In this document: positions 21,061 through 64,000 of the stretch, one piece after another
Layout of the letters: every line of letters starts with the position of its first letter
Position numbering within the stretch: position 1 is the stretch's first letter
NCBI GenBank assembly: GCA_050246115.1
Contig: JBFWWP010000032.1
Span: forward strand, 1,078-65,077
Length of the DNA stretch: 64,000 nucleotides
Origin: Planctomycetota bacterium
GTDB lineage: Bacteria; Planctomycetota; UBA8108; UBA1146; JAJFFE01
Direction: 5' to 3'
Position numbers and translations under genes: made by a program
The notes under the pieces: model-generated
Database searches by the model: none
What the model was told of the DNA's origin: nothing
The model's input: the letters and a program-made list of their open reading frames with translations, nothing else

Positions 21061-21071
21061 ACGAGAGCTTA

Positions 21072-21905
21072 ATGCCGCCGAAGACTTCTGGTTTGGAGTT
21101 CGTCCGTACCCTGGTCCGAGACCGAGCGGGTATCGTCCTGGAGAGCAACAAGGACTACCTGATCGAGTCCCGCCTCAGTGCGGTCGCCCGTAAGTGCGGT
21201 CATAGTTCGCTCGACGACTTCTTGGACGCCATTCAAGGCAAGCGTGACCCCGAGGTCCTCGCGACCGTCGTCGATGCAATGACTACGAACGAAACCTCGT
21301 TCTTTCGTGAGATGCACGTCTTCGAAGGACTGAGGAAGACCGTGTTGCCGGAGTGCATCGAGTTCAACAAGTCTCGGAGGCAGCTGAACTTTTGGTGCGG
21401 GGCCGCCTCTAGCGGACAGGAACCGTACACGATCGCCATGGCGCTTCAGGACTGGTTCCCGGAACTTGCCACCTGGAAGATCCAGTTCACGGCCACGGAC
21501 ATCTCGCAGGAGATGCTCGCACGGTGCCAGGAGGGGGTTTACTCCCAGCTCGAGGTCAATCGTGGGCTGCCCGTACCCATGCTCCTGAAGCACTTTCAGA
21601 AGCAGGGTGCGGACTGGCGTGTCAAGGACCACCTGCGTCGGTACGTCACCTTCCGTGAGCTCAACCTGATCGGCAAGTGGCCGCCGTTCCCAACGCTCGA
21701 CGTGGTGTTCCTCCGCAACGTGCTGATCTACTTCGACGTCGATACCAAGAAGAAGATCCTCGCCAACATCCGCACCTTTCTTCGCCCGCAAGGATTCTTG
21801 TTCCTCGGCTCGGCCGAGACGACTTTGAACCTCGACAACGACTTCGAGCGCGTCAAGTTCGATCGCGGTTGCTGTTACCGTCACGTCCCCAGGAAGGCAA
21901 CCTGA
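21072..21905 (+). CDS. cheR: Chemotaxis protein methyltransferase CheR
   Basis: TNETSFFRE, SAdoMet-binding NFWCGAASSGQEPYTIAM, FLRNVLIYFD. Start at ATG 21072 (MPPKTSG) inside the 20922 ORF, just after the cheB stop. Confidence 0.85.
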   Translation: MPPKTSGLEFVRTLVRDRAGIVLESNKDYLIESRLSAVARKCGHSSLDDFLDAIQGKRDPEVLATVVDAMTTNETSFFREMHVFEGLRKTVLPECIEFNKSRRQLNFWCGAASSGQEPYTIAMALQDWFPELATWKIQFTATDISQEMLARCQEGVYSQLEVNRGLPVPMLLKHFQKQGADWRVKDHLRRYVTFRELNLIGKWPPFPTLDVVFLRNVLIYFDVDTKKKILANIRTFLRPQGFLFLGSAETTLNLDNDFERVKFDRGCCYRHVPRKAT

Positions 21906-21906
21906 C

Positions 21907-22368
21907 ATGCAGGCTCATATGCAGGAGATCACCCGCTTCACCGAGAGCATCTGGAGCACGATGCTCGGATTCATGGTGCAAGCCCAAGTGGGGTCGAGCG
22001 AGCGGGAACTCAGCGAGGTCTCGGACCACGAAGTCGTCGCTTCCGTGGCCATTGCGGGCGCCTGGAACGGTTCGGTCGCGGTCGTCTGTAGCGAGAATCT
22101 GGCGCGCCGTGCCGCTGGCGCCCTCTTCGAGAAGCCCTTCGGGGAGGTCACTCTCGAGGAACTCTCGGACGCCATGGGCGAACTCGCGAACATGATTGGT
22201 GGCAACCTGAAGTCGTTGCTGCCCGCTCCCTCGCATCTCGAAACGCCGTGGATGGCGTGTACTCGTCGCGGGGCCCGGTTCTTGCCCGAGCAGGCCATCA
22301 TCACCCAGGCTGCGTTCGAGTGCGATGGGGCCGGGTTCCGGGTCTACCTTCTCAAGCCGTCTTCCTGA
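21907..22368 (+). CDS. cheX: CheX-type chemotaxis phosphatase
   Basis: LSDAMGELANMIGGNLKSLLP is the CheX/CheC signature. 153 aa. Immediately follows cheR. Confidence 0.6.
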   Translation: MQAHMQEITRFTESIWSTMLGFMVQAQVGSSERELSEVSDHEVVASVAIAGAWNGSVAVVCSENLARRAAGALFEKPFGEVTLEELSDAMGELANMIGGNLKSLLPAPSHLETPWMACTRRGARFLPEQAIITQAAFECDGAGFRVYLLKPSS

Positions 22369-22553: not shown

Positions 22554-24734
22554 TTACTCGAACTTGAACCGACCGACCAGCTTCTGGAGCCCCGCGGCCA
22601 TCTCCGAGAGTTCTTGGGCCGCCTTCTGGGTATCGCTTGCCCCGGAAGACGTGCTCTCCGCCGCTTGGGCGACTCCCGTGATGTTCTCGGCGATCTCGGT
22701 AGTGCCGCGGGCCGCCTCGGCCACGTTGCGTCCGATTTCGTTGGTGGCAGCGGTCTGCTCCTCGACCGCACTGGCGATGGTGTTCGAGATGTCGTTGATC
22801 TGCTTGATCACGCCCGAGATCTGGGCGATCGCGTTGACCGCGCTCTTCGTGTCCTCTTGGTTGGCCTCGATCTTCTGACTGATCTCCTCGGTTGCCTTGG
22901 CGGTCTCCTTGGCGAGCTCCTTGACCTCGTTCGCAACGACCGCGAAGCCCTTGCCGGCCTCTCCGGCGCGCGCCGCTTCGATGGTGGCGTTCAAGGCGAG
23001 CAGGTTCGTCTGTTGAGCGATCGAGGTGATCACTTTGATCACTTGTCCGATCTCCGCGCTGCTGTTCCCGAGCTTGGCGACGATCGCGTTGGTCTCGTCG
23101 GCCACGCGAACTGCTTGCGTCGCGACGCGCGCCGCTTCGTTCGCGTTGGTGGCGATCTCCGAGATGCTCGCGGTCATCTCCTCGGCGCCGGTTGCCACGG
23201 TTTGCACACTCTTGCTGACCTCGCCGGCCGCGTTCGACACCACACTGGCTTGGGCCGAGGTCTCCTCGGCGTTGGCGCTCATCTGCTCGCTGACGGCCGT
23301 GATCTCGTCCGCGGACGCCGCCAGGCCCTGGGCGCTGTGGGCGATCGTCGAGATGCTCCCGCGCAGGTTCGAGAGGAACTTGGACAGTCCGACCGCGAGC
23401 TGACCAATGGCATCGCTGCCATCGAGGTCGATGCCGCGGGTCAGATCGCCGTCCTGGGCCGACTGCACCACGTCCAGGATCAGGCTCACCTTCTCGCGCA
23501 GCTCGGCTGCTTGAGCGCGCTCGCGCTGCTGCGCCGCCTCGATCTCCTGCTCCTGCTTGAGCTGATCGGTGATTACCGCCCATGACACCATGGGCCCGAT
23601 GTAGGTGCCCTTGGCGTCGTTGATGGCCGACACCTGGAGGTCCAGCGTTTCCGGACCGAGCTGGATCTGTGCGCGGTGTGGCAGGTTGCGCGGGTCGCTG
23701 AGCATCTTGCGCTGATGCTCCGGTCGTTTGTGGAAGATGTCGATGCTCGCGCCGACGACCTTGTCGGCGGGAATCGGCAGGTACTGTTCGACTTTGCGCA
23801 GCGTGGCGAGCGATGCAGGGTTCATGTAGGTGATACGGAAGTCGAGGTCAGTCATCATGATGTTGATCGGCGCGTTCTCGACGAGGGCGAGGATCCGCGC
23901 CTGATCGTTGGCCATGCGGAGTTTGTCGGTGATCACCTCCCAGGTGACCATCGGACCGACGTAGTTGCCGTTGGCGTCGTAGATTGGGCTGACGAGCAGG
24001 TCCGCGGTCTCCGGGCCGATCTGAATCGACGTCCGGTGCGGCAGGTTCGCCGGGTTCTTCAGCAAGCGTCGCTGGTGCGAAGGGTTCTTGTGGAACACGT
24101 CGATGCTGGCGCCCACCATCTGATCCACCGGAATCGGCAGGTACTGCTCGAGCTTCTCGAGCGTGGTCCGTGAGGCCGGGTTGACGTACGTCAGGACGAG
24201 GTCTTCGTCCGCGAGCAGTACGTTGACTGGTGCGTTCTCGAGCATGGCCAGGAGGGTCTCCTGGGTCATTTCCTTTTGCCGCGTCTGCGTCTTCGTCATT
24301 GCCAAAGCCTCTTTTCCACCGACCGATTCGTCCGGGGTATTGATGATTTGTGCTGCCAGGGGACCGATCCGCTGCATGACCTCTCGAACTAGGTCGTCTT
24401 GGACACCGGCAGACGTGAGCGTTGCCGTGAGATGCTGGGCGATCCGCGAGAAGTGACGTCCTTGGATCGAGAGGTGAGAGTGGGCGGATTCCATGTCGCG
24501 CCCCTTGTAGCTGCGCGGCCCGTCCAAGGCCTGGGAGAAGAATGCAACTTGCTGCTTCTTCAGCCACTGCATGTCCGTACGTTCAAAGAACGTCGACACC
24601 AAGGGGTCATCCAGAACCAATTCATAGAAAGCATCCACGACGCTCTTGAGCGCTGCCTTGCCCCCGAGGCGGTCGTAGAGCGACTGCGTCGCGGGAGTTC
24701 CGGGTACTGAGGGCGTCTCGTTGCGCACGGTCAT
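22554..24734 (-). CDS. Methyl-accepting chemotaxis protein with N-terminal truncated haemoglobin (group I trHb), two PAS domains and C-terminal MCP signalling domain
   Basis: trHbN signature [32 protein letters not shown]...[15 protein letters not shown] (B10 Tyr, GG motif, proximal His). Two PAS-like segments follow. Highly conserved MCP core [33 protein letters not shown]. No transmembrane segment seen. Start at ATG 24734 (MTVRNET). Confidence 0.8.
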
Positions 24735-24762
24735 TGGAGTTCCGTTCACGCTGGGCAAAGAG

Positions 24763-25221
24763 TCAGAGCGACGGGGAAGACGCCACCGCAGTGTCGAGCG
24801 CCCTGCGGGTGTCGAGCACGAGGAGGAGTCGACCGGGGTGTTTGTAGACGCCCTTGATGAGCTCGCGCACCGACGCAGCGACCGTCTCGGGTGGAGATTC
24901 GTAGCTCTCCGGGTGGACTTCGAGAACGTCGCCGATGTCATCGACGAGGAGGCTCACCGCGCCTTCCGACTCGCGAACCACGACATTCATCGGCAGCTGC
25001 CCGGGCTCGCGATCGGGTAGGCCGAGGCGCCGTCGCAGGTCGATCGCGGTGACGATCTCCCCCCGCAAGTTGATCAGGCCGCTGACCTCGGGGGGGGCCA
25101 ACGGCACCATGGTCATGCGCTGGTAGCGGATGACCTCTTGAACGTCGAGTACGGGAATCCCGAGGAACAACTCACCCAGGTAGAAGGTGCAGAGCTGTCG
25201 GGTCTGGCTTTCGCTATGCAT
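24763..25221 (-). CDS. cheW: Chemotaxis coupling protein CheW
   Basis: [22 protein letters not shown]...[18 protein letters not shown]...LVLDTRRAL is a typical CheW fold. Start at ATG 25221 (MHSESQT), overlapping the cheA 3' end. Confidence 0.85.
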
Positions 25222-43862: not shown

Positions 43863-45293
43863 TCAGGTCTTCGCCAGCACTGCCCTTTGCGACGGCGCAT
43901 GACCGAGCGCCGAGCCGCGGTCCGTGAACGGCGGGCGCGAAGGTCCAGGGTCGACGTCGGTGCGGCCCTTCCGCTCCTGGATCAGCCGATCCAAGAGCGT
44001 CACCACGGCCTGCGACGCCAGTTCCATCTGCTCGAACCGTTGCTCCGCTTCCTCACGGCGGCCTTCGGTGTGGGCCTTGGCTGCCTCGCGACCGAATCGA
44101 TGGACCTGAGCGTGCGGCTCCGCGAGGGCTTGGAAGTCGGGATTGTGCACGAACCAAGAGTCACGAAGCGAGTCGTACCACTTGCCGAGCCGGCATTGGT
44201 GGTGATCGGCCAGTTCCTCGTAGCGCAGGTTCGTGCGGCCGACGAACAGCTCGGCGAGCCGCTTCTTCCAGATGAAGTGATCGGACTTGGCTCGGAAGAG
44301 GACGTAGTCGGGGATCTCCATCGCTTCGAGTAGCTTGAACTGTTCTTCGACGAGGCACTCCGTGGCTCCCACGACGGCGAGCGTTCGGTGGGTGCGGTGT
44401 CGATTGCGGCTCGAGAGTTCGGCCACGGTGGCGGTCCCGGATCCGATTTCCTCGACGGCTTGGGTCTGCTCGGACAGCATCGATGCGACCTGCGCCATGC
44501 GGGTGGACACGACGGAAGCGTCCTCGCTGATCCTCTGAACTTCCGCCTGCGCTGCGGCGGCAGCGGCCTTGCCGGCCTCCACCTCGCGGGTCACTTCGGA
44601 GACCGATTGGGATAGCGCGACGATCTCGGTGGTGACGACCTGAATGCGCTTGCGAATGTCCTCCGTCGCGGACGATGTCTGCTGTGCGAGCTTCTTGACT
44701 TCATCGGCGACGATGGCGAAGCCGGCTCCGTGCGCGCCCGCCCGCGCCGCTTCGATCGTCGCGTTGAGGGCGAGCAAGTTGGTCTGGCGAGCGATGGCGT
44801 CGATCGTGTCGACGATCCCCGAGATCTGGCGAGAAGCGCTCGAAAGCGTCTGCGCGCGAATCTCGACCATTGCGACCACGTCATTGAAGTGGTCCATGCG
44901 CTCGACGACGTCCTCCATTCTCGACACGCCTTCGCTCGCCGCATCTTTCGAGGCCGTGGCGAGGTCGGACGCCGACCTGCTGGCTTCGGTCAGGCTGCCG
45001 ATCGAGGCGGTGAGCTGTTCGATGGCGGCAGCCATGGCTTGGGTCCGTTGATCGGTCACTTCCAGGATGCTCGACATTTGAGCGACGGCAGTCATGGCCT
45101 CGCTCGCGTTCATGGAGAACCGTACGGTGCGATCCAGGCTGTCGCGCGCTTCTGCCGCGAGCGACAGTCCGAGTTCCCGAATGGCGCAGGAGAGTGGATC
45201 TTCGCCGGTCGGGAGGCACGAGAAGTCGCGGACCAGTAGAGACTGAGCGGCAGCGATCAACGGGTCGGGGTTGGTCATGGATGTCCTGATCAT
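43863..45293 (-). CDS. Soluble methyl-accepting chemotaxis protein with C-terminal CZB (chemoreceptor zinc-binding) domain
   Basis: MCP core [36 protein letters not shown] motif [12 protein letters not shown]...H at the C-terminus. No transmembrane helix. Start ATG 45293 (or 45278). Confidence 0.8.
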
Positions 45294-45502
45294 CGAGCGG
45301 GCCCCTCCCGAGTCGTGTATCGACCCTCCGGGCTCTCGCGCCTTCGCGCTTTGTGCGGGGCCCGTGACAGTGACTAGGTAAGTTGATTTCCCGTTGCGAC
45401 TTGAGTAAGTGACCGCACCCCGGCCCAGGCGGCTTTCGCGGATCCTTGGGAACGGCTCCGAGTCCCACCCGACGGTACGCGTCCCGGTAGCCACCGTGAC
45501 CG

Positions 45503-50213: not shown

Positions 50214-52166
50214 ATGTCACCCGAGTATCGATACCTACGATCTGACGCGCTCCCCGACCGCGTATCCCTCGAGGCTTGTGTGGAAACATGCGCCGAGCGG
50301 GCATGGCGGCTCGCCTACGCGCTGTTGCGCAGCCACGACGACGCGTTCGACGTGGTGCAGCAGGCGTGTCTCGTTGCCGCCCTCAAGCCCGGGCAGATCC
50401 CGCGTCCACCCGCCGATCCCTGGCCCTGGTTCAGTGTGGTCATTGCGAACGAGGCTCGCAACTCCCGGCGCAAGGCTCGGAGAAGTCCACTGTCGCTCGC
50501 GAGCGGTGAGAAAGGAGAGTCCATGGATGTCGTCGACCATCGCGGGGTGGATCCAACGGACGCACTCGCCGTCGAGGACTCGCACCGCGCGCTGTGGCGA
50601 GAGATCGATGCGCTCCCTGAGCCGGAGCGCACGGCGTTGGTGCTCACCCGTATCGGCGGCCTCAGCCATGAAGCCGTTGCCCGCTCGGTCGGAGTGCCGC
50701 GTCAAACGCTGACGTCTCAGATCGCGCGCGCGATGGAGCGTCTGCGCGCTCGACTGCGGCGGGAGGATCCCGCGATTCTTGCGCAAATGGCGCTCTTGCC
50801 GGTGGCGCTCCCCGACCGCGGTTGGTCCGCGGCGATCGCCGCCTGGAAGACCACGGCTTCGGCTGGTCTGGCTGCGAAAGCGGCCGCCGGCACCATGACC
50901 CTAGGAGGTATCATGACACTCAGCAAGCCAACGCTGGCAGCGGCGATTTCGGTGGCACTTGGCGTCGGCTTGACCACGGGCTACTTCGCGGGCGATCACC
51001 GGCCGACTGCGCTGCGGGGAGTCGAGGAACGAGCCCAAAGTGAGCACGCAGCGATCGCGACGCTCGCAGACGCACCTGCGGCCCTACGACCGGTGATCGA
51101 CGCAGCCATCGCGGAGGCCTGCGCGACGACCTCCGCCCGTGTCCGCGAGTCGTTCGACTCCGAGCTTGCGGCCCTTCGCGCCCAGCACGAATCCGTGGTC
51201 GCCGAGCGCGACGCGCTCCGCGGCCAACTGGCTGAACTCGAAACCCCGAGTGACCCCGCAGGCCCGACCTTCACCTTCGGCGAAGGCGGACAGCTCCCGG
51301 AGGTGGCGCAGGCGAACTGGGCGGAGATGGCAGAGGCCTCCCACATCGTCGCTGGCGCGATCAAGGACATGGTCGCCTACCAAGATCGCGGCGAACCGGT
51401 CCCGACGAGCGTCGGCATTGCGATGCAGGAGAACGTCGAGAAGATGCGCAAGTACGAGTATCGCGTCTTCCAGAAGCTCCCATCCGAGGCCCGGTTCAAC
51501 GGCGAGTTCACGCACCCGATCTCGGTCACCAACCTGCTCGCAGCCGAGCTGACGCGTTCCGGGCTGCCGCTCACCGCCCCGCAGGTCGAGGCCATCAGCC
51601 GAGTCGGGGAGCAGTACGAGCAAGACGCCGCGCGCTACCGCGACAACTACCCGCCCGACACGCTTCGAGTGCGCAGGATCCTCGACGAGTACCTGCTCAA
51701 GAGCGACTTCACCGAGGCGGTCTACGAGGTGCTCACTCGTGAGCAACGACAGATCATCATCGATCCGGCGACGAACCGCATCGCGTTCCTCGATCTCTAC
51801 TGCCCCTCGCTGATGATCATCCACACGTCGCCGATCCTCCAGGGTGCGACGCCCGAGGAGTTGAAGACCAAGCTGGGGCAACTCGTGAGCGCTCGCTACT
51901 CGTTGGCCGACGCCGAAGGGGTCTGGCTCGAAGGGCTACTCCAAAACTGGCGCGCCCGCGTAGCCCCGATCCTGCACGAGGTTCCACCCCATCGCGTCCG
52001 CTACTACACTTTCGAAGAGAGCGTGATCGCCGGACACGCCACAGTGGAGCTACTGACCGAGCTACTCGGCCACGCGACCGACGACGCCGCGCGCGCCACG
52101 ATCCTGGATGAGGCTGGCTTCCTCATCCCGCGACTCGTCGCGGCGCCGACCGTCAGTCAAGGCTGA
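50214..52166 (+). CDS. ECF sigma factor fused to a transmembrane segment and a ~400-aa extracytoplasmic domain (second sigma/anti-sigma-like single polypeptide)
   Basis: Region 2 DDAFDVVQQACLVAAL...PWFSVVIANEARN. Region 4 ERTALVLTRIGGLSHEAVARSVGVPRQTLTSQIARAMERL. Hydrophobic segment LGGIMTLSKPTLAAAISVALGVGLTTGYF. Long helical C-terminal domain with no recognised family. Confidence 0.7.
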   Translation: MSPEYRYLRSDALPDRVSLEACVETCAERAWRLAYALLRSHDDAFDVVQQACLVAALKPGQIPRPPADPWPWFSVVIANEARNSRRKARRSPLSLASGEKGESMDVVDHRGVDPTDALAVEDSHRALWREIDALPEPERTALVLTRIGGLSHEAVARSVGVPRQTLTSQIARAMERLRARLRREDPAILAQMALLPVALPDRGWSAAIAAWKTTASAGLAAKAAAGTMTLGGIMTLSKPTLAAAISVALGVGLTTGYFAGDHRPTALRGVEERAQSEHAAIATLADAPAALRPVIDAAIAEACATTSARVRESFDSELAALRAQHESVVAERDALRGQLAELETPSDPAGPTFTFGEGGQLPEVAQANWAEMAEASHIVAGAIKDMVAYQDRGEPVPTSVGIAMQENVEKMRKYEYRVFQKLPSEARFNGEFTHPISVTNLLAAELTRSGLPLTAPQVEAISRVGEQYEQDAARYRDNYPPDTLRVRRILDEYLLKSDFTEAVYEVLTREQRQIIIDPATNRIAFLDLYCPSLMIIHTSPILQGATPEELKTKLGQLVSARYSLADAEGVWLEGLLQNWRARVAPILHEVPPHRVRYYTFEESVIAGHATVELLTELLGHATDDAARATILDEAGFLIPRLVAAPTVSQG

Positions 52167-52292
52167 GCCCACGCTCGAGGCCCGGAGTTCCTGCAGACCC
52201 AAGCGGAGCTGCAGCGGTTGCGCGCCGATTTCGAGGAGCTCGTGCCGAGCGACGAGCGCGAGGCCCTGAAGCAAGCGCATGCCGCGCTTGCT

Positions 52293-53090
52293 TCAGGCCG
52301 AGGTTGGTTCAGGCCGAGGTTGCGCACTGCGGTTCAAGGGTTCAAGGGGCGGGCCCTTTCGGAGCTGCTCCAATTCACTTCGGAGCGCCGCCCAGTACCT
52401 CCGGTCGACTTCACGTTCGGTGCGTTCCTCCGTCGCGATCTCGTTTTCGACTCCGACGAGGTCACCTTTGCAAGCGGCGGACACCGCGGGTCGTTCGTCG
52501 GCACACTCGGCAGCAAGTTGCGGTTGTTGGGTACAGAGTTCGACCAGAAACTCGGCCGTCCTCAGTTCCGCTAGCCAGAAACGGACTTTGGCCGGGTTTG
52601 CCGCCGCTCGGCCGGAGACATAGCTTGCTTCGACGAGGCGCCGCAGCATCCCCCGGTCCTGGTCACGCTGAGTCTTCTTGGCTCGGACGAGGTCCGGTAG
52701 CGACATGACCTCGATCGTCGCGCCGCCTCCGACCTCGATGGTAGTGCGTCGTGCGCACAACCGCTCGAAGTCTGCCACACCGCGCATGACCGCCATCACG
52801 TCCACCCTCATGCCGCGAGCCTCGGGATGATGACAGCGAAAGTGGATGCCATGACCGCGTTGGAGCTACTCGAGTTCGAGGGGAGGAACTGCGATCGTCT
52901 CCGCTTGCAGTTCCCGCAGAGCCTCACGGAGCCGGACGAGGTTCTCTTCGGACGAGCGAATCGCCAGGTTTGTGTCCCGGCTAAACTCCGCCCCTCCGTA
53001 CAATACGCAGGCTTGCCCCCCCATGAGGAGGCTCTGCACTTGGTGCCTTTGCATCGTAGAAAGGACTTTGCGTATCGGGCTCGGGGTCAA
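52293..53090 (-). pseudogene. Nucleotidyltransferase-like ORF interrupted by an in-frame TAG (52863-52865); candidate pseudogene
   Basis: Track ORFs 52866..53090 and 52293..52811 are in the same frame, separated only by TAG. Translation across it reads ...AVPPLELE*LQRGHGIHFRCHHPEARGMRVDVMAV.... Family assignment (minimal nucleotidyltransferase / AbiEii-like) is low confidence. Confidence 0.35.
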
Positions 53091-53541
53091 GGCTACCTCC
53101 CAGCATGAGGAAGTCGTTCCACAACTTCATGGACTCGGCGAATCGCTCGGCCGGGCTCAGCAGGTACCAAGCGGACCACTCGTACCCGCACACGTCGGCG
53201 GGTATCCAATCGGGCTGAGTCCCCACCCAGAGTTTCCTTCCACTGGCGCTACGCTACGCAGATCGTTCCACCGGGCTCGAGGGTGGGCCCAGCGACGCGT
53301 GCTGGAACGCTCTCGGGCCCCAAAGCCCCAATGCGTTGAGTCGAGTCTACGCGCCTGCCCCCGCAGTTCTCAAGGCCCCGGCACGCGAGTTCAGGGGTTC
53401 GGCATCCTCTGGCCCGGCGAACATCGCGCTCGACGCGAACCTCCCGCGCGAACCTCCCGCCCGAGAGTACTCCGCCCAGTGTGCACGAACACCCCGCCGG
53501 GCCGGCCGCTCGAGACTCGTTTCACGAATCGACCCACTGCC

Positions 53542-53620
53542 TATCGGCGGCCTCAGCCATGAAGCTCGTTGCCCGCTCGGAGGTATCATGACACTCAGCG
53601 AGCCAACGCTCGCAGCGGCG
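53542..53620. other. Chimeric remnant of the 50214..52166 sigma-fusion gene: two non-adjacent segments joined
   Basis: tatcggcggcctcagccatgaagc...gcccgctcgg matches 50651-50690. It is joined directly to aggtatcatgacactcagc.agccaacgct.gcagcggcg, which matches about 50906-50945. Confidence 0.5.
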
Positions 53621-53932: not shown

Positions 53933-54226
53933 ATGCTCGAACTCGTGGCATGGGTCGTAGGCTGCGTCGTCGTGAGCTCGGAGCCGGCGGCGCCGCCACG
54001 CTTCGAAGCGCCTGTGCGACTCATGGCCGGTGAGAAACCGATGGGCGGCGACCGGCTCTATCCGTCGCCAGTGTTGCACGATGTCGATGGCGACGGGGTC
54101 GCGGATATGGTGATTGGCGATCTGGTCGGGAATCTCACTGTTTCGAAACGGGTCGCCGGCGCCTGGCTGGCCCCGACGCCACTCACCGCGGCCGACGGCA
54201 AGCCGCTCAAGTTCAACAACTGGTGA
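53933..54226 (+). CDS. N-terminal part (signal peptide + first FG-GAP repeat) of an FG-GAP/VCBS protein, ended by in-frame TGA 54224-54226
   Basis: MLELVAWVVGCVVVSSEPAAPP signal-like. VLHDVDGDGVADMVIGDLVG repeat. Same reading frame as the following 54236..55240 ORF. Confidence 0.35.
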   Translation: MLELVAWVVGCVVVSSEPAAPPRFEAPVRLMAGEKPMGGDRLYPSPVLHDVDGDGVADMVIGDLVGNLTVSKRVAGAWLAPTPLTAADGKPLKFNNW

Positions 54227-54235
54227 TGCATCGGC

Positions 54236-55240
54236 ATGGCTCCACAGTTCGTGGAGTTTAGCGGCGATCGGCATCTCGACATCGTCACTGCGACTTTCGA
54301 TGGTTCCGCGCACGTAGCTTTCGGAAGCGAAGGTGGGTTCCTCGCGCCCGAGCACATTCTCGACTCGAAAGGTCACCGGGTGTTGCTTGCGCAGTACTGG
54401 GACTATGAGCGCAAGGACTGGTTGGAGAACGCCAAGCAGCCCAAGGGACACTGCACCTCTGCCGTGGCGTTCGATTGGGACGGCGATGGCGACCTCGATC
54501 TGCTTCTCGGATCCTACGGTGATGGGCAACTCTATCGGCAGATGAACGAGGGCAAGGCCGGAGCCCCGCAGTTCACGGGCGTGAACCTGCCGATCTCCGC
54601 GGGGGGACAACCGCTACGCGTCGCAGGAGGCATCACGACCCCGCAGCTCGTCGACTGGAACGGCGACGGCCTCACCGACATCTTGTGTGGTGGTTTCGGC
54701 GACAGCTACGGCGACGGGCCCGGTGGGGGCGTCTGGGTCTACCTGAACTGCGGTGCGGCCAAGTCACCGAGCTTCGACGCACCGATCACGCTCATCCCAA
54801 CGAGTCCCAAGGGCGCGAAACAGCCGACCCGCCCCGACTCTGCCTTGTACGCACACGCAGTCGACTACGACGCCGACGGCGACCTGGACCTCATCGTCGG
54901 CGGATACAGCCACTGGAGTCCGCCCGCCCGATCGCTGAGTGAGGCCGAGCAAACGCGAGTGTTGGAACTCCAGCGCCAAATCGAGGGCGTAGAAGAGCGA
55001 GTCGCGAAGCTCTACGCCGCTGTCGAGAAAGGGCTCGAAGCCGCCACTCCGGAAGCGCAAAGCGCCGCGATCGACAAGCTCTTCGAAAGCCCGGAGTTCC
55101 TGGAGGCTCAAGCGGAGCTGCAGCGGCTGCACGCCGAACTCGACGGACTCGTGCCCAGCGACAAGCGCGAGGCCTTCGTCTGGTACTACGAGAGATCGAC
55201 CGCGAGCCAGTCGACGACGAAGACCACCGGTACCTTCTGA
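54236..55240 (+). CDS. FG-GAP/VCBS-repeat protein (C-terminal portion if the TGA at 54224 is a disruption)
   Basis: Repeats FDWDGDGDLDLLLGSYGDGQLY, VDWNGDGLTDILCGGFGDSYGDG, VDYDADGDLDLIVGGYSHW. Helical C-terminal tail. Stop TGA 55238-55240, immediately abutted by an IS fragment. Confidence 0.6.
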   Translation: MAPQFVEFSGDRHLDIVTATFDGSAHVAFGSEGGFLAPEHILDSKGHRVLLAQYWDYERKDWLENAKQPKGHCTSAVAFDWDGDGDLDLLLGSYGDGQLYRQMNEGKAGAPQFTGVNLPISAGGQPLRVAGGITTPQLVDWNGDGLTDILCGGFGDSYGDGPGGGVWVYLNCGAAKSPSFDAPITLIPTSPKGAKQPTRPDSALYAHAVDYDADGDLDLIVGGYSHWSPPARSLSEAEQTRVLELQRQIEGVEERVAKLYAAVEKGLEAATPEAQSAAIDKLFESPEFLEAQAELQRLHAELDGLVPSDKREAFVWYYERSTASQSTTKTTGTF

Positions 55241-55242
55241 GG

Positions 55243-55770
55243 ACCCCGGTGCCCACACGGTCTCCCACTGACCCTGGTGGCAGTTGAGGGCACGGGCGAC
55301 CTGGCTACCTGAGAACTGCATGAACTTGGGAAGGGTCTTTCCAGAGTACGAGACGACGAGGTGCAAGTGATTGCTCAAGACCTGGAAGGCGTGGACCCTG
55401 ACCGAGTAGCGCTCCGCCGCGACGGCGAGCAGATACAAGATGAGCTGGTTCACCTCCCGGCTCGGCCGAAGTCGATGCTGACGTTTCAAGACGCGTCGCG
55501 TCACCATGACCGTGCCGCTCGGCGGCAGCAGGCGTGGGGGTGTCGCCATGCGAACTCCTCTCACGGAGGATGTTCGCAATCCGCCAGCCGGGCTGTTATC
55601 AGCGACCCCGAAAGGCCGCAACTGCAGACTACCACCGCGATTGAACCTCCGACGTCAGGGAATCGTCGGCCCTGGGGCCAACGACCGAACCAGGACGAAG
55701 CACCGGAGGCGGTTGCCCGAGTGGTGGGGGGCGGGGCACGGGGATTTCTCTCGGGCGGGTGTTTCCCCCC
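55243..55770 (-). mobile_element. IS fragment: right-end sequence plus the 5' ~105 codons of the HUH transposase gene (55243..55558), truncated
   Basis: Near-identical to 57845..58391 of the complete copy. Homology begins exactly 2 bp after the FG-GAP gene stop and ends near gggcgggtgtttcccc. Confidence 0.75.
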
Positions 55771-55803
55771 AAAGGCCTAAAGGGCCCGGAGGACTGCCCC
55801 GAG

Positions 55804-56052
55804 ATGCTAAAGGTCATCGAAAGGCTAGAACTGGTGATTCGATTGCGCGAGTTGCGCGCAAGACTCAACTGCCGCAATGCACGAAACGCGGGGCATGCGG
55901 AAGCATGGGAGAACTATAGACTGGCACTTTTGTATTGTCGGTACAAAATCCTGACCGAGTGCTCGGAGCCACGCGCTCCCGGGCTTCCTGACCTGATTCC
56001 GCCGACGCCGATGGAGCCGCCACCAGACCCGCCGATCGACGAAGGAGGTTGA
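55804..56052 (+). CDS. Small hypothetical protein (83 aa), lower-GC cargo between IS copies
   Basis: ATG 55804 (MLKVIERLELVIRLRELRAR...). Stop overlaps the ATG of the next ORF. No known domain. Confidence 0.35.
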   Translation: MLKVIERLELVIRLRELRARLNCRNARNAGHAEAWENYRLALLYCRYKILTECSEPRAPGLPDLIPPTPMEPPPDPPIDEGG

Positions 56053-56771
56053 TGGATATCGAGTTGTTCCCTGGCGGCTTCAGTGAATGGCGTGAAGTTG
56101 TCTTCCGGACTCCGGACAGCGACCTGATTGACAAGTTGATCGACGCCGACCCTCGCCGGGCGCTTCGCTACTTTGCCGCCTGTCTTTCGCTGGCACGTGA
56201 ACTTGCGCAGTACGACGCGTTGGACGTACGTGCCGGCCTCTACTGCCTGGCGATTGAGAGTGACTATCTGCGGCTGTGGAAGAATCATCTCCTTCCGTTA
56301 GATGATCGCCTGTCTGCCGTTGCGGCCATGGGTGTTCTGTTCGAAGACTACTTTGCATTGCACTGTCAGCCGACGCATTCTCGTGAGACTGAGTTGGGTA
56401 AACAGCTAGAGAATCTCTCTGAGCCTTGGTGGGAGATGGACCGGCTGCCGGTCAGTAATATCGCCAGGGTGCCTGGAGCACTGGAGCTACTTGCAACCAA
56501 CTGGTGGGACGAAGTGCCCTTTCATCCCAAGAGAGACGACCACGCGTTCATTTCGGTTTTGAGGAGACTGCTTGCCAGGTTGCTCGGCAGTGACGCGCTG
56601 GTTTGTCAAGAGTCAGCGCTATACGGAATGTCGGAGAATGAAGACGTGTTGTCGGTGAGTTGGCGTAAGCGGCTTGTGGGAGCATATTACGCAAGGACAT
56701 CTGACTGCCATCCGCTGCGTACACTAACTGTCGAAACACTCGTACATCTGAATCATCTCGCTCCGGAGTAA
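56049..56771 (+). CDS. Hypothetical protein (240 aa), lower-GC cargo between IS copies
   Basis: GGAGG SD then TTG/ATG at 56049/56052. Helical and Trp-rich (WWEMDRLP, TNWWDEVPF). No recognised domain. GC clearly below the window average. Confidence 0.5.
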   Translation: MMDIELFPGGFSEWREVVFRTPDSDLIDKLIDADPRRALRYFAACLSLARELAQYDALDVRAGLYCLAIESDYLRLWKNHLLPLDDRLSAVAAMGVLFEDYFALHCQPTHSRETELGKQLENLSEPWWEMDRLPVSNIARVPGALELLATNWWDEVPFHPKRDDHAFISVLRRLLARLLGSDALVCQESALYGMSENEDVLSVSWRKRLVGAYYARTSDCHPLRTLTVETLVHLNHLAPE

Positions 56772-56841
56772 GGTGAGGTGTCGGCACGCGTGCGTCACGA
56801 GGAATTTTCTGAGCTTCGGTGAGGCGGGTCGAGGAGCATCC

Positions 56842-58391
56842 GGAGCATCCCGCCCGAAAGTAATCCGCTGAGTGAGCCCGGTAGCACGTTCGTGTCTTCC
56901 GCGAAGTGCGCCCTCGGTGTCGAGAACGGCATGATGAGTCCATCGCGACCGAGTCCTGGGCGTGCCAGTTGGCCTCGGTCGGTCGGTGAGGGGGCCGGTT
57001 GCTGAGTGGCGTGACCGTCGGCAATCGTCGTTCAGGCTGGCCCGATGGCGGGCGGTGTTGGCGAGTGTTGCTGGTGACGAGCGCCAACGACTTAGTGTTC
57101 AGCGATCTCTGGCACTCGGGGTCCGCGCCCACGAGAACCGAGTCGTGCCACAGACCTTCACGAGTGAGTCGGCGGGGGCTGCGAAGCGAGCCAAGAGTGC
57201 TGCCGCAGAGATCTCAAAGCCGTGTCGTGAGCGACGCACGTCAGGAGGGGGCTGGATCCTCGCAGCGCGCGCCGAGAAAGACGTGCATCCGGTATGTGCC
57301 ACTCGGGAAGACGACGGAGCGCTGGCCGGACACGAAGCGCGCGAGTGCATGTGCGTAACGGGCGAGGAACTCCTTGAGTCGTTGGATCGCCTCGAGGCGC
57401 GCCCAGCGATTGGAGGCCGCGATCCTCGGGTTGAGACCCCGCCGTGGTTCGCCGCCTCTTGGGTAGGAGTGCGGCGACTGCGCGAGTATGGCCTGGGCGC
57501 CGAGGAACCCCAGGCCCTTCGCTTTGCGATCTCGGCGGATCGTGCGCTCGCGCTCTCTGCAGTTGGCGATGAGTTGGCCCCGCGCTTCCTCCGCGGACAG
57601 CCCGGGGATGCGCGGCATCGAGGTCTCGAGCACCACCGACTCGGGCATGCCTCCCTCCGCGTCGAAGAAGAAGTCGGGACGGTCGACCTGCCAAGATCGT
57701 CGACCGATCTCATGCGCGAGAATCTTGACTCCTGGCCACTCCTTGGCGCTCCGCACGAGTCCGGCCGCGACGACGTTCGTCAGCACGTACAGCATGTACT
57801 TGAAGATCGTCGCTCGATCTCGGAGGAAGTCGAGTTTGTTGTAGGACCCCGGTGCCCACACGGTCTCCCACTGGCCCTGGTGGCAGTTGAGGGCCCGGGC
57901 GACCTGGCTACCTGAGAACTGCATGAACTTGGGGAGGGTCTTCCCAGAGTACGAGACGACGAGGTGCAAGTGGTTGCTCAAGACCTGGAAGGCGTGGACC
58001 CTGACCGAGTAGCGATCCGCCGCGACGGCGAGCAGATACAAGATGAGCTGGTTCACTTCCCGGCTCGGCCGAAGTCGATGCTGCCGTTTCAAGACGCGCC
58101 GCGTCACCATGACCGTGCCGCTCGGCGGCAGCAGACGTGGGGGTGTCGCCATGCGAACTCCTCTCTCGGAGGACGTTCGCAATCCGCCAGCCGGGCGGTC
58201 ATCAGCGACCCCGAAACGCCGCAACTGCGGAGTTCCACCGCGATTGAACCTCCGACGTCAAGGAATCGTCGGCCCTGGGCCTTCGTCGTCGAACGACCGA
58301 ACCAGGACGAAGCACCGGAGGCGGTTGCTCGAGTGGTGGGGGGCGGGGCACGGGGATTACTCTCGGGCGGGTGTTTCCCCGGTGTTTCCCC
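56842..58391 (-). mobile_element. Complete copy of a ~1.55 kb IS-like element encoding an HUH-type (IS200/IS605-like Y1) transposase; imperfect terminal repeats around a CCCGCCCGA core
   Basis: Left end GGAGCATCCCGCCCGAAAG is shared by the copies at 59563 and 63578. Right end ...CTCGGGCGGGTGTTTCCCC is shared with 55770. The reverse-complemented ends share CCCGCCCGA. Confidence 0.7.
57241..58152 (-). CDS. Transposase, HUH superfamily (IS200/IS605-like)
   Basis: GAGAGAGGAG SD then ATG 58152 (MATPPRLLPP). HUH-like motif VLSNHLHLVV. 304 aa. Same protein repeated (partial) at 55243..55558 and 59958..60252. Confidence 0.55.
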   Translation of the reverse strand: MATPPRLLPPSGTVMVTRRVLKRQHRLRPSREVNQLILYLLAVAADRYSVRVHAFQVLSNHLHLVVSYSGKTLPKFMQFSGSQVARALNCHQGQWETVWAPGSYNKLDFLRDRATIFKYMLYVLTNVVAAGLVRSAKEWPGVKILAHEIGRRSWQVDRPDFFFDAEGGMPESVVLETSMPRIPGLSAEEARGQLIANCRERERTIRRDRKAKGLGFLGAQAILAQSPHSYPRGGEPRRGLNPRIAASNRWARLEAIQRLKEFLARYAHALARFVSGQRSVVFPSGTYRMHVFLGARCEDPAPS

Positions 58392-58437
58392 AAAAGAGAG
58401 CCACTGGAACAAAGATTGGCGAACATGGTTAGAAGGC

Positions 58438-58695
58438 ATGGAGGTGCAACAGATTACGGAAGCGGACATAGACGATCAGCTGGCCAGAATGGAGAATGAC
58501 GCAAAGTACGCGGAGAAGCTGAAGCACGGCACGCCCGCCACCACGGTAGATGGAGGCAAAGGAGTCGGTTACAGGGAGTGGAAGAGTGACAAGGGCGGGA
58601 TTAAGACCCGCTGCAACAAGAACTTCCACGCAGGACTCGGAGTAGTCGACAAGAAGATGGGGAAGATGGGCAAGGCCCTCGGGCGTTGCGGATAA
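58438..58695 (+). CDS. Small basic hypothetical protein (85 aa), lower-GC cargo
   Basis: ATG 58438 (MEVQQITEADIDDQLARMEND...KTRCNKNFHAGLGVVDKKMGKMGKALGRCG). Lys/Gly-rich C-terminus. Coding-like codon usage. No domain recognised. Confidence 0.35.
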   Translation: MEVQQITEADIDDQLARMENDAKYAEKLKHGTPATTVDGGKGVGYREWKSDKGGIKTRCNKNFHAGLGVVDKKMGKMGKALGRCG

Positions 58696-58940
58696 CGGGA
58701 AAGCTCGGAGGTTTGCTTGGAGTAGTGCTTAGTGCAACGTCGATAGCGTCTGCTGCTACGGAGGGCGACATAGAAGGAGTAATGTTGGAGGCGACACCAG
58801 CGGGGTTGTTGCGGGACGTTGGGAACTACGTTAATGACGAGGTTGTCAGTGTGCTCCAGAGGGCCGTTTCGAAGGGCCCGGGAACAGCGTCGGGCTATGA
58901 TAAGGCCGGCCAGGATCTGAGTAAGCCAGAGGGATATTAG
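58686..58940 (+). CDS. Small hypothetical secreted-like protein (84 aa)
   Basis: MRITGKLGGLLGVVLSATSIASAATEG signal-like N-terminus. Overlaps the preceding ORF by 10 nt. Confidence 0.3.
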   Translation: MRITGKLGGLLGVVLSATSIASAATEGDIEGVMLEATPAGLLRDVGNYVNDEVVSVLQRAVSKGPGTASGYDKAGQDLSKPEGY

Positions 58941-58944
58941 ATCA

Positions 58945-59478
58945 ATGAGGAGCGAAGTGATTTTTAAGATTGACACGTGCCCGCCGGGCGGGGATTACGG
59001 GCATGAACTCATGAACGGATCTTCCTCATGGGATGGTAGCGTGTTCCGTTACGTGCGGTCGGGCCCGTATGTCCCGCCACTTTCGCTCGTCATCGGGACA
59101 GCAATAGGAACTCGTGAGTTCGTGAGCGCCTACGATCGAATGGAGGGGTGGACCCTCTTTGCGTACGCGGTCACCCCGGGGAAGGTGTACCGTGCGAATT
59201 GGCGAGAGTGGGGCGACAGGTGGAGGTACCCGTCGGACTTGCAGCCGGACCTTGAAGAGCCGGAAGACTACCATGAGCTGCCTGAGGATGCAGAAACGAG
59301 AGCGGCTTGCCCGGAGCTGTTCGTTCTTGACTTCAAGTTGAGCGAGTCGCCGCCCAAGTACGGGGGGTTCTTTCGGCGGTTCCCAATGGGGCGGATTTTC
59401 TGTACGCAGAAGGAGAAGGACTGGTTTGAGAACGAGTTTAACAGCGATGGCCTTTACCACTTCGTCGAAGTTGAGTGA
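58945..59478 (+). CDS. Hypothetical protein (177 aa), lower-GC cargo
   Basis: MRSEVIFKIDTCPPGGDYGHELMNGSSSWDGSVFRYV.... Acidic and Trp-rich. No known domain. Bounded downstream by IS fragment 59563. Confidence 0.45.
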   Translation: MRSEVIFKIDTCPPGGDYGHELMNGSSSWDGSVFRYVRSGPYVPPLSLVIGTAIGTREFVSAYDRMEGWTLFAYAVTPGKVYRANWREWGDRWRYPSDLQPDLEEPEDYHELPEDAETRAACPELFVLDFKLSESPPKYGGFFRRFPMGRIFCTQKEKDWFENEFNSDGLYHFVEVE

Positions 59479-59562
59479 GCCGTGTTGTCCCGTCATGTTG
59501 CACTACCAGGGGGCGTTGGTGCATGGTTGCTTCGGGGTCGGAAGTTGTTTATCCTACGAGAG

Positions 59563-60252
59563 GGAGCATCCCGCCCGAAAGTAATCCGCCGAGTGAGCCC
59601 GGTAGCACGTTCGTGTCTTCCGCGAAGTGCGGGCTCGGTGTCGAGAACGGCATGATGGGTCCATCGCGATCGAGTCCTGGGCGTGCCAGTTGGCCTCGGT
59701 CGGTCGGTGGGGGGGCCGGTTGCTGAGTGGCGTGACCGTCGGCAATCGTCGTTCAGGCTGGCCCGATGGCGGGCGGTGTTGGCGAGTGTTGCTGGTGACG
59801 AGCGCCAACGACTTGGTGTTCAGCGATCTCTGGCACTCGGGGTCCGCGCCCACGAGAACCGAGTCGTGCCACATTCACGAGTGAGTCGGCGGGGGCTGCG
59901 AAGCGAGCCAAGAGTGCTGCCGCAGAGATCTCAAAGCCGTGTCGTGAGCGACGCACGTCAGGAGGGGGCTGGATCCTCGCAGCGCGCGCCGAGAAAGACG
60001 TGCATCCGGTATGTACCACTCGGGAAGACGACGGAGCGCTGGCCGGACACGAAGCGCGCGAGTGCATGTGCGTAACGGGCGAGAAACTCCTTGAGTCGTT
60101 GGATCGCCTCGAGGCGCGCCCAGCGATTGGAGGCCGCGATCCTCGGGTTCAGGCCCCGCCGTGGTTCGCCGCCTCTTGGGTAGGAGTGCGGCGACTGCGC
60201 GAGTATGGCCTGGGCGCGGAGCAGATACACGATGAGCTGGTTCACTTCCCGG
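59563..60252 (-). mobile_element. IS fragment: left end plus 3' transposase segment with a ~0.5 kb internal deletion, truncated at 60252
   Basis: 59563..~60215 is near-identical to 56842..~57500 of the full copy, then jumps to the ...cagatacacgatgagctggttcacttcccgg segment (about 58028-58060 in the full copy). Confidence 0.75.
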
Positions 60253-60345
60253 CAGCTTGGGTCGCCGAGGATGTCGGTGGCTTCAGCGCGAGCGAAGGCC
60301 GACGTGGCCATCTCCGTCATCCGGTCCAACGCGCGCCGCCACTCG

Positions 60346-61284
60346 TCACGCGGTTCGTGCGGGCCGCTCCAGCGTTGCACCGCGGCGCGCCGCTCCTCCA
60401 CCTAGCCGCTGCACCTTCGGGTGGTGGAACAGCCGGGTGAAGGACGCCCGCGCCGGCGCACGCCAGGTGCGCAGGAACCGCTCGAGTTCGTTCAGGAAGC
60501 CGACCCCGCAGTTGTGGTCCGAGACCTCGTCGTGGGTCGATCTCGCCGTCGGCCGCTCGGTTCGGATGCGGAGGACCATGCTCGTGGCTCGTGGATGCGT
60601 GACGGCGGCATGCAGAAAGCGCCACGTGGCCTCCCGCTGCCGGCCCAACTCGTGCGCGGCGAGGGCGGCGATGAGATTCTGTTCCGGGTACAGCTCGCTC
60701 AGCCCTTTCGCCGCCTCGAAGGACTCGGCCCAGTTGCTGCGGTTCAGGTGAATCGTGGCTCGGTGAGCGGCCGCCGTGATGTCGTCGCCGTATCTCCTGT
60801 CCAGTCGGTCGCACAGATCGAGCGCCTCATCATCGCGCCCCGCGCGGGCCAGGGTGAGGGTCAGGTTGCGGAGGCCGCGCAGGAAGGGCCGTATCTCGAG
60901 TAGCGTCCAGTAGTGTTGCTTCGCGAGCCGGCTCGGGAACTGCTTGCGGCCCACCTCGATGGTGCGCCGGAAGTGCTCCTCCGCCGGTTCTAGTTGACCC
61001 CGGTCGAGCGCGATGAGTCCAAGGTAGTTGTACCCATTCGCGAATGCGCCGAAGCAGTCGAGGAGCAGGCGGAAGACCGACTGGGCCTCGTCCATGCGGC
61101 CTTCTCGGTAGAGATTGGCCGCCATCTCCTCGACCTCTGGCGGGACCCCGGATGGAGACAGGGTGTAGCTCCAGCCGAAAGCGTCGGCCAAGAACGGCGA
61201 GCCCTCCGCTCCGGTGCAGACCCGGACCCGCGTTTCGATGAGGTCGCGCAGGAATGCGAGCTCGTGGCGGTGCTCCTGGATCAC
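60346..61284 (-). CDS. TPR-like helical repeat protein (hypothetical)
   Basis: GTG start (MIQEHRHELAF). Repeats such as YNYLGLIALDRGQLEPAEEHFRRTIEV and AGRDDEALDLCDRL. The C-terminal ~60 aa are low-complexity and may be over-extended. Confidence 0.45.
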   Translation of the reverse strand: MIQEHRHELAFLRDLIETRVRVCTGAEGSPFLADAFGWSYTLSPSGVPPEVEEMAANLYREGRMDEAQSVFRLLLDCFGAFANGYNYLGLIALDRGQLEPAEEHFRRTIEVGRKQFPSRLAKQHYWTLLEIRPFLRGLRNLTLTLARAGRDDEALDLCDRLDRRYGDDITAAAHRATIHLNRSNWAESFEAAKGLSELYPEQNLIAALAAHELGRQREATWRFLHAAVTHPRATSMVLRIRTERPTARSTHDEVSDHNCGVGFLNELERFLRTWRAPARASFTRLFHHPKVQRLGGGAARRGATLERPARTA

Positions 61285-63392: not shown

Positions 63393-63577
63393 TCACAGCA
63401 ACTGGGAGACGAAGGTCCTCGCCGGCACGGTGACGGGTCGCCCGGGTGCCGAGAAACAGTCGAGGTCGACGTAGTCTGCGTTCAGCACGACCTGGAACGG
63501 GAACGCAGCCCCGAGTTGCCGTTGGAAGTACTCGAGCGCTGGGGTGAGAGAGTCGTCGGTGATCTTCACTTCTACGG
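63393..63577 (-). pseudogene. 3' remnant of a gene whose upstream portion is replaced by an IS insertion
   Basis: The track ORF 63393..63668 reads out of the IS left end. Only ...PVEVKITDDSLTPALEYFQRQLGAAFPFQVVLNADYVDLDCF... is native sequence. Origin unknown. Confidence 0.3.
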
Positions 63578-64000
63578 GGAGCATCCCGCCCGAAAGTAAT
63601 CCGCCGAGTGAGCCCGGTAGCACGTTCGTGTCTTCCGCGAAGTGCGCCCTCGGTGTCGAGAACGGCATGATGGGTCGATCGCGATCGAGTCCTGGGCGTG
63701 CCAGTTGGCCTCGGTCGGTCGGTGGGGGGACCGGTTGCTGAGTGGCGTGACCGTCGGCAAGCGTAGTTCAGGCTGGCCCGATGGCGGGCGGTGTTGGCGA
63801 GTGTTGGTGACGGGCTCTAACGCCTTGATGTTCCGCGATCTCTAGCACTCGGAGTCCGCGCCCACGAGAACCGAGTCGGGCCACATTCACGAGTGAGTCG
63901 GCGGGGGCTGCGAAGCGAGCCAAGAGTGCTGCCGCAGAGATCTCAAAGCCGTGTCGTGAGCGACACACGTCAGGAGGGGCTGGATCCTCGCAGCGCGCGC
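63578..64000 (-). mobile_element. Fourth copy of the IS element (left end + 3' transposase region), running off the window end
   Basis: GGGGAGCATCCCGCCCGAAAGTAATCC... is near-identical to 56842.. and 59563... Carries small indels (e.g. tgttggtgacgggctctaacgcc) relative to the other copies. Confidence 0.75.

Follow-up and report, generated by a model that had tools for sequence, protein, structure and literature searches.

A stretch of 64,000 nucleotides (hereafter the window) from a Planctomycetota metagenome-assembled genome (MAG; GenBank assembly GCA_050246115.1, contig JBFWWP010000032.1, positions 1,078 to 65,077 of the forward strand) contains two blocks of low GC content, each situated between copies of a transposase-bearing repeat. 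Rather than a functional system of cassettes, the region is probably a transposon-scarred accessory patch at the end of the contig. The blocks have a foreign composition, their two larger genes belong to uncharacterised families with members in unrelated taxa, and of the repeats that bracket them a single copy is intact. An earlier note, made from the sequence alone, had described the open reading frames (ORFs) of the two blocks as candidate horizontally acquired cassettes between insertion sequence (IS) copies, possibly of toxin/immunity type and possibly mobile in the manner of a composite transposon.

Both blocks lie approximately four standard deviations (sd) below the background GC (mean 0.657, sd 0.022 and minimum 0.595 in 1-kb windows outside the region) and constitute the lowest GC of the window. 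The low GC claimed in the earlier note was thus confirmed, with the correction that the background is about 65.5% and not 68%. All five ORFs are found where the note had placed them, the one given as 83 amino acids (aa) being 82 aa plus the stop codon, and the stop of this ORF does overlap the start of the 240-aa ORF (TTGATG). GC at third codon positions (GC3) is 0.59-0.73 in the block ORFs versus 0.78-0.84 in host genes, and under a host codon model these ORFs score about -0.1 bits per codon (-0.27 to +0.02) versus +0.2 to +0.3 in host genes, so that GC, GC3 and codon scores are all atypical. The coding signal was evaluated with one codon model trained on 18 long host ORFs and another trained on two validated cargo genes. 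For all five ORFs the proposed frame ranks first among the six frames with both models, the sole tie being the 84-aa ORF under the host model. At 20800-22200 the GC falls to the second-lowest level of the whole stretch (0.595-0.602 for 1-kb windows with starts at 20801-21201).

The features by which genomic islets are recognised are present, with atypical composition and codon usage, transposase copies, and relatives of the cargo in unrelated taxa, and horizontal acquisition of the blocks is supported. This part of the earlier note stands for the two larger ORFs, which are real genes whose only relatives are found in other phyla, apart from the Planctomycetota listed below within the wider 240-aa family, but it does not extend to the three small ORFs, which have no homologue. 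Also in agreement with the note, none of the five ORFs has a recognisable domain, as no match was found at E<=0.1 in Pfam, NCBIfam, PADLOC or PHROGs. Exact and near-exact protein look-ups give three of them as annotated genes of the Planctomycetota MAG, with the locus tags AB7O52_17080, AB7O52_17090 and AB7O52_17095.

The 240-aa protein belongs, as a divergent member, to a widespread but uncharacterised family of all-alpha solenoid proteins. A word-indexed search of 5.8 billion protein clusters returned the protein itself only, and a full HMMER search of 1.84 billion representatives gave 22 relatives of about 200-240 aa at E<=1e-3, the best with E=9e-16 and 34% identity. The family, with a typical length of ~220 aa, is characterised by the motifs F..W..VFDHP, PLNS.CYMWWD, ACQESALHGLGHW and YA..AR.G.V; the protein from the window deviates by an insertion of ~28 aa, by Thr for the Cys of CYMWWD and by Tyr for the His of LHG. 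A scan of one genome per species with a narrower family alignment confirmed at least 265 loci. Members are found in Microvirga, Bradyrhizobium, Rhizobium and Dongia, with Alphaproteobacteria among the groups, in Verrucomicrobiota, Chloroflexota, Planctomycetota and Acidobacteriota, and in the cyanobacteria Scytonema and Brasilonema. No Pfam domain was found in ten family members, and neither this family nor that of the 177-aa protein had a match among viral contigs.

The AlphaFold2 (AF2) model of the 240-aa protein is a confidently predicted all-helical solenoid with about 15 helices (pLDDT 85, pTM 0.83). It resembles ARM, HEAT and TOG solenoids in being a predicted stack of helices, but the similarity is generic (Foldseek E~0.07 and TM ~0.3; profile search E~0.003 over ~55 residues), and the family differs from these solenoids in having motifs of its own (CYMWWD and ACQESALHGLGHW) and no Pfam model. 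The top matches with Foldseek and in the profile search were designed armadillo, TOG and importin-alpha repeats, and comparison with BFVD gave nothing beyond the same generic solenoid likeness. Leucine-rich repeats (LRR) precede the family domain in fusion proteins of two cyanobacteria, Brasilonema (locus L033, 5442-6653; LRR_4 E=1.9e-23) and Scytonema (locus L034, 5035-6666; LRR_4 E=6e-38), and these fusions would fit a protein-binding role for the family. In the Brasilonema locus a Pnkp-type RNA repair ligase is encoded 16 nucleotides (nt) downstream of the fused member. From its predicted fold, the product of the 240-aa gene may be a stand-alone ARM/HEAT-like alpha-solenoid scaffold for protein binding.

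The genomic surroundings of the 240-aa family were compared in 80 fetched loci, where 50 upstream and 53 downstream neighbours were searched against Pfam and the 25 commonest families on each side were listed. Clustering of the neighbouring ORFs in the 80 loci revealed no conserved neighbour, and synteny was seen only within genera. Among the families that occur most often beside the gene are aldo-keto reductases, glycosyltransferases, DNA ligase, dienelactone hydrolases and methyltransferases. Tandem paralogues occur in only 2 of the 80 loci, both from Dongiaceae (L043, 5986-7340, and L059, 5296-6660). Three other Dongiaceae loci (L049, L061 and L069) have a homologous ORF of ~213 aa directly upstream of the family member; it is an HhH-GPD DNA glycosylase in L069, the one that was scanned. 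A profile of the 177-aa family gave no match in the 80 loci.

The 177-aa protein is likewise a divergent member (~30% identity) of an uncharacterised family, here of ~203-aa alpha/beta proteins. A single-sequence search gave two relatives of 203 aa with ~30% identity, and a profile search expanded the family to 485 clusters of about 200 aa, the few named ones being Candidatus Acidoferrum and Acidisarcina (Acidobacteriota). The AF2 model is of alpha/beta type and mediocre quality (pLDDT 66.6). In remote-homology checks of the kind that the earlier note had proposed, the 240-aa protein gave the generic ARM/HEAT/TOG likeness described above. For the 177-aa protein neither Foldseek nor a profile search gave a match in the PDB, which contains no structure related to it in sequence. 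When 44 family members were searched against Pfam at E<=1, four chance-level matches appeared, each in a single member, and none was to an Imm or Tox family. A suspected resemblance of the C-terminal DLFR...SERARDWF to Imm11/DUF1629 was backed by no search and was dropped. Three genomic contexts are available for the family, between dihydropyrimidinase and der, between peptidase M20 and an HD hydrolase, and between ferrochelatase and dienelactone hydrolase. Because these contexts differ, the gene is regarded as stand-alone, and its product would be a stand-alone cytoplasmic alpha/beta protein.

The repeats that flank the blocks are direct copies of one element of 1,539 bp, as seen when the window is compared with itself. 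There are four copies (Table 1), all in the same orientation and with a regular spacing of about 2.6-2.7 kb, and the blocks are consequently bracketed by transposase-bearing repeats as the earlier note had said, with the addition that copy B alone is intact. To speak of IS copies is essentially right, the element being of a RAYT/IS200-like HUH kind that ends in plain inverted repeats. What is left of copy A is the right-end inverted repeat (55742-55759) together with the initial ~127 codons of the transposase gene and the region upstream of this gene, and its start coincides exactly with the end (stop codon) of an FG-GAP gene. Copy C keeps its left end along with the final part of the transposase gene, has an internal deletion equivalent to 57505-58029 and is without a right end. 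A chimeric ORF of 147 aa is found at copy C (59958-60401, minus strand), in which 48 unrelated N-terminal aa join the transposase at REVNQL and the frame then jumps the internal deletion of ~525 bp to the C-terminal third of the transposase.

Table 1. Positions in the window of the blocks, element copies, element ends and genes
Feature	Position	Strand	Remarks
Copy A of the element	55240-55768	-	Truncated; 94% identical to 57843-58380
Cargo block 1	55769-56841	+	GC 0.568
82-aa orphan ORF	55804-56052	+	Alternative GTG start at 55759 gives 97 aa
240-aa gene, AB7O52_17080	56049-56771	+	TTG start; NCBI annotation has ATG at 56052, 239 aa
Copy B of the element	56842-58380	-	Sole complete copy
Left terminal inverted-repeat core, copy B	56849-56866	+	CCCGCCCGAAAGTAATCC
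HUH/Y1 transposase-like gene, 327 aa	57241-58224	-	REP_Tyr_transpos and Y1_Tnp matches below cut-offs
Right terminal inverted-repeat core, copy B	58354-58371	-	CCCGCCCGAGAGTAATCC
Cargo block 2	58381-59562	+	GC 0.566
85-aa orphan ORF, AB7O52_17090	58438-58695	+	NCBI-annotated; Lys/Gly-rich C-terminus
84-aa orphan ORF	58686-58940	+	TTG start; called in the Logan gene set only
177-aa gene, AB7O52_17095	58945-59478	+	Annotated as 173 aa
Copy C of the element	59563-60253	-	Defective; 97.6% identical
TPR protein, 312 aa	60346-61284	-	Third inter-copy block, host-like GC
HipB-like HTH protein, 104 aa	61627-61941	+	HTH_31 2.8e-11
HipA kinase, 415 aa	61938-63185	+	HipA_C 2.8e-44; Couple_hipA
Copy D of the element	63578 onward (to 64000)	-	From the left end on, leaves the window; 93.7% identical to 56842-57272

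The ends of the element share an inverted-repeat core of 18 bp with the consensus CCCGCCCGA[A/G]AGTAATCC (end motif CCCGCCCGARAGWAATCC). The two ends match in 17 of 18 positions and in 21 of 27 when extended, and none of 2000 shuffles gave as good a match. Besides the ends of copy B and the right end of copy A, the motif is found at 59570-59587 and 63585-63602. One solo motif with 1 mismatch is located at 53456-53473, the sole extra copy in the 64 kb. Short relics of neighbouring genes adjoin the solo motif, with 53576-53620 being 93% identical to 50901-50945 and 55089-55174 being 86% identical to 52180-52265, and the FG-GAP gene is split at 54226/54236. These relics suggest that the element brought about a rearrangement of a paralogous sigma/anti-sigma-FG-GAP gene at an earlier time.

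The protein encoded by the element carries, by eye, an HUH motif (SNHLHLVV) and a tyrosine motif (YVLTNVVAAGLV). Among family models it comes closest to NCBIfam REP_Tyr_transpos (E=2.2e-12; 47.1 bits, where the curated cut-off is 80), followed by weak matches to Pfam Y1_Tnp (E=7e-4, 20.2 bits against a cut-off of 23) and NCBIfam transpos_IS200 (17.1 bits against a cut-off of 55). The likeness to RAYTs and to TnpA of IS200/IS605 resides in the N-terminal ~175 aa, with the HUH motif and a tyrosine motif of the form Y...N.V.AGLV, and, for RAYTs, also in the short sequences in inverted orientation that flank the gene. The differences are several. All scores are below the curated cut-offs, and a C-terminal extension of ~150 aa matches no family, Pfam included. 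REP sequences and the ends of IS200/IS605 form hairpins, whereas the terminal repeats of this element are not palindromic and fold no better than shuffled sequences (z -0.43 to +0.52). The IS200/IS605 family is without terminal inverted repeats, unlike the element with its 18-bp core at both ends. A RAYT gene is usually single-copy, whereas there are four full or partial copies here with 94-98% identity; near-identical duplicates on one replicon are IS-like and uncommon among RAYTs (PMC5581495). With a single extra solo motif in the 64 kb of the window, an abundance like that of REP sequences is not seen within this stretch. The combination of an HUH/Y1 transposase, inverted repeats without hairpins and several copies fits neither IS200/IS605 nor typical single-copy RAYTs. 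The transposase had no relative among metagenome contigs, only ~31%-identical Skermanella transposases among plasmids, and no match in PADLOC.

The three small ORFs are more difficult to judge than the two larger genes. The 82-aa ORF has, by eye, a helical N-terminus and a Pro-rich C-terminus, and its exact sequence is absent from a collection of 15 billion proteins. The 84-aa ORF, to which the earlier note ascribed a signal peptide, has a candidate for one at its N-terminus, where a K/R n-region, then a hydrophobic core, and an A-x-A-like site are visible by eye. A search with the three ORFs concatenated gave no relative among metagenome contigs, and in the 88 fetched loci of relatives from both families the small ORFs had only chance-level matches. 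They might be no more than open frames in IS-flanking debris, a possibility that deserves serious consideration even if we place it below even chances. It would agree with the lack of any homologue and with the properties of the 84-aa ORF, which begins with TTG, was skipped by the NCBI annotation and scores no better than an antisense frame with the codon model from host genes. Furthermore, the end of the 85-aa ORF overlaps the start of the 84-aa ORF by 10 nt in a different frame, and the two may be a single gene that has been disrupted, perhaps through a frameshift. On the other hand, the annotated frame outscores the other five in all three ORFs with the model from the two validated cargo genes (for the 85-aa ORF only weakly so), their spacing to the validated genes is tight and operon-like, and the plus strand of block 2 is strongly purine-rich. 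Coding strands usually are purine-rich. The three ORFs are thus possibly expressed orphans. The earlier note had singled out the Lys/Gly-rich 85-aa protein and the neighbouring 84-aa ORF as the most suggestive; their frames are coding-like, but they are orphans without homologue or family.

The blocks might alternatively be mobile cassettes, each between an inverted right and left end, which the copy B transposase moves in trans or which are excised as circles between direct copies, the array having arisen by HUH-mediated gene capture. Such an arrangement is suggested by the pair of inverted 18-bp motifs round each block (55742-55759 and 56849-56866; 58354-58371 and 59570-59587), by the regular spacing of the direct copies and by the one intact transposase gene. 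It is nevertheless unlikely. Neither block turned up a second time in the window, among the 5.8 billion clustered proteins or in metagenome, plasmid and phage collections, and the DNA of both blocks had no match among plasmids and phages. The relatives of the cargo genes have neither a conserved neighbour nor a common transposase neighbour family, with the limit that the end motif of the element was not searched for in their surroundings. The composite-transposon-like mobility proposed in the earlier note has in its favour that the cargo lies between direct copies of one insertion element, but it is not supported, because in both classical composite structures an outer end is missing (the left end of copy A in one, the right end of copy C in the other), no target-site duplication was seen at the junctions and there is no second block copy; nor has the cargo a selectable function.

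A toxin-immunity, toxin-antitoxin (TA) or defence function of the blocks is somewhat less likely still. It would make the 82-aa and 240-aa ORFs a pair and the 85-, 84- and 177-aa ORFs a trio, with the solenoid or alpha/beta proteins in the part of immunity proteins. The stop/start overlap of the first two ORFs suggests translational coupling, the 240-aa family has a patchy distribution across phyla, and small all-alpha repeat proteins are a common architecture of immunity proteins. The patch moreover adjoins a true TA module, HipBA, which is situated between copies C and D. This is a bona fide type II pair of a HipB-like helix-turn-helix protein and a HipA kinase in the next inter-copy block; it lies outside the two blocks, has host-like GC and is unrelated in sequence to the block ORFs. 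The presence of HipBA shows that the patch collects selfish or accessory modules.

In sequence comparisons the block ORFs themselves matched no Tox, Imm, TA, PADLOC or PHROG family, and the only PADLOC matches in the neighbourhood are weak ones of HipA to PDC-M03A. The blocks resemble the C-terminal/immunity arrays of Rhs, CdiA and WapA polymorphic toxins in that their genes are small and foreign, in a mobile context and with one stop/start overlap, but no toxin core gene or orphan toxin fragment was found among the ORFs examined. No polymorphic-toxin domain was found in the ten largest ORFs at 1-50 kb or among the Pfam matches of the called genes at 46-64 kb, the smaller ORFs at 1-46 kb being unscanned, and no Rhs, CdiA or type VI secretion system (T6SS) gene is present among the larger ORFs of the window. 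The ten largest ORFs encode Ser/Thr kinases with TPR or WD40 repeats, chemotaxis proteins, an ECF sigma fusion, and FG-GAP and BNR/sortilin proteins. The relatives do not point to toxins either. The 240-aa family has housekeeping enzymes as its commonest neighbours, with Rhs, CdiA, WapA, PAAR and LXG absent from the commonest families listed, and tandem paralogues resembling an immunity array are confined to the two Dongiaceae loci mentioned above. The 177-aa family stands between housekeeping genes in its three contexts, and no homologue of the small ORFs was seen beside members of either family. The neighbourhoods surveyed in other genomes show no sign of the association with Rhs/WapA/CdiA-type toxins that the earlier note had proposed to look for. 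Its toxin/immunity, bacteriocin or defence reading is not supported, and we infer that none of the block genes acts as a toxin-immunity pair.

The repeats are long (1.5 kb) and 94-98% identical, and the arrangement could in part be an assembly artefact, a chimeric join in the MAG that has placed blocks side by side that are not truly adjacent. A sister assembly (GCA_050250155.1) is 100% identical to the window wherever it covers it, but its contigs break within copy B, ending at window position 57235 and restarting at 58039. In addition, each block occurs as an isolated Logan contig of ~1.2 kb (L006 with block 1 alone and L001 with block 2 alone, each with 27-58 bp of element ends on both sides), and the GC of the blocks differs from the remaining contig. 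Against this, sister contig L005 joins host genes, copy A, block 1 and 394 bp of copy B in this order with no difference from the window, and in L011 a piece of copy B of 342 bp is followed by block 2, copy C, the TPR gene, HipBA and copy D, tying block 2 to inter-copy genes only. Because both contigs match the window, including the copy-specific single-nucleotide polymorphisms, block 1 is linked directly to host genes, and the part that is not bridged is limited to ~800 bp in the middle of copy B. The junctions between block and element are reproduced by independent assemblies for both blocks, and an artefact is improbable. Less credence still is given to a previously undescribed HUH/Y1 (RAYT-like) element with plain inverted repeats that builds tandem arrays of captured foreign cassettes mobilisable in trans, with the small ORFs and the two families as cargo and possibly as new addiction or immunity modules like HipBA.

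The preferred reading is that of a scarred patch of foreign DNA, in which the two low-GC blocks (~1.1-1.2 kb) would be pieces of one acquired and dispensable segment, the two being taken as one because they have the same GC. The element would have multiplied into this segment, where insertions would be without cost, the transposase gene and the cargo being transcribed in divergent directions. Copies A and C would afterwards have been truncated by deletions and by recombination among the copies, and the HipBA addiction module next door might help the patch to persist. Such a course of spread and decay is consistent with the solo end motif beside the relics and with HipBA in the next block.

Several observations weigh against this account. 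The third inter-copy block, with the TPR gene and HipBA, has a GC that is host-like or higher, and because of this the patch is not of a single origin. Tandem duplications of its own ends, of 9 bp at 56833-56850 (GGAGCATCC twice) and of 11 bp at 58370-58391 (GGTGTTTCCCC twice), set copy B apart from copies A, C and D, and the account does not explain them. No target-site duplications came to light that would demonstrate insertion rather than recombination. The middle of copy B (57236-58038) is spanned by the present assembly alone. All available sequences derive from one population and offer no variation for testing selection on the small ORFs. Finally, the conclusion that the block genes are not a toxin/immunity pair is based on absence of linkage and not on a positive assignment.

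Some further features of the window and its surroundings were recorded. No tRNA was found in a scan of the window, and a tRNA-linked island is for this reason not indicated. Rfam gave no match at E<=1 for 52-64 kb, and a scan for promoters and terminators gave results at or below shuffled expectation. At 52293-53090 on the minus strand, an ORF of 172 aa (called in the sister assembly, without Pfam match) is preceded by an ORF of 74 aa in another frame, with a slightly low GC of 0.61-0.64. This may be a disrupted gene; a guess that the two represent a split nucleotidyltransferase was not confirmed by Pfam, nor was the guess that a 91-aa ORF at 63393-63668 is a DUF4143 fragment. A direct repeat of 150 nt with 72% identity (22882-23031 and 44656-44805) lies inside two ORFs with MCP domains (22554-24941 and 43863-45494), and the repeats are probably paralogous chemoreceptor domains.

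The region is one more case of insertion elements accumulating in horizontally acquired, dispensable DNA near a TA module, and as such carries little mechanistic weight. Two protein families without a Pfam or NCBIfam model have emerged that could be curated as domains of unknown function, the alpha-solenoid family of ~220 aa in at least 265 species and the family of ~203 aa with its 485 clusters. The element, with a RAYT-like HUH enzyme, inverted-repeat ends without hairpins and several copies, presents an unusual mix that may be of modest value to the classification of insertion sequences.

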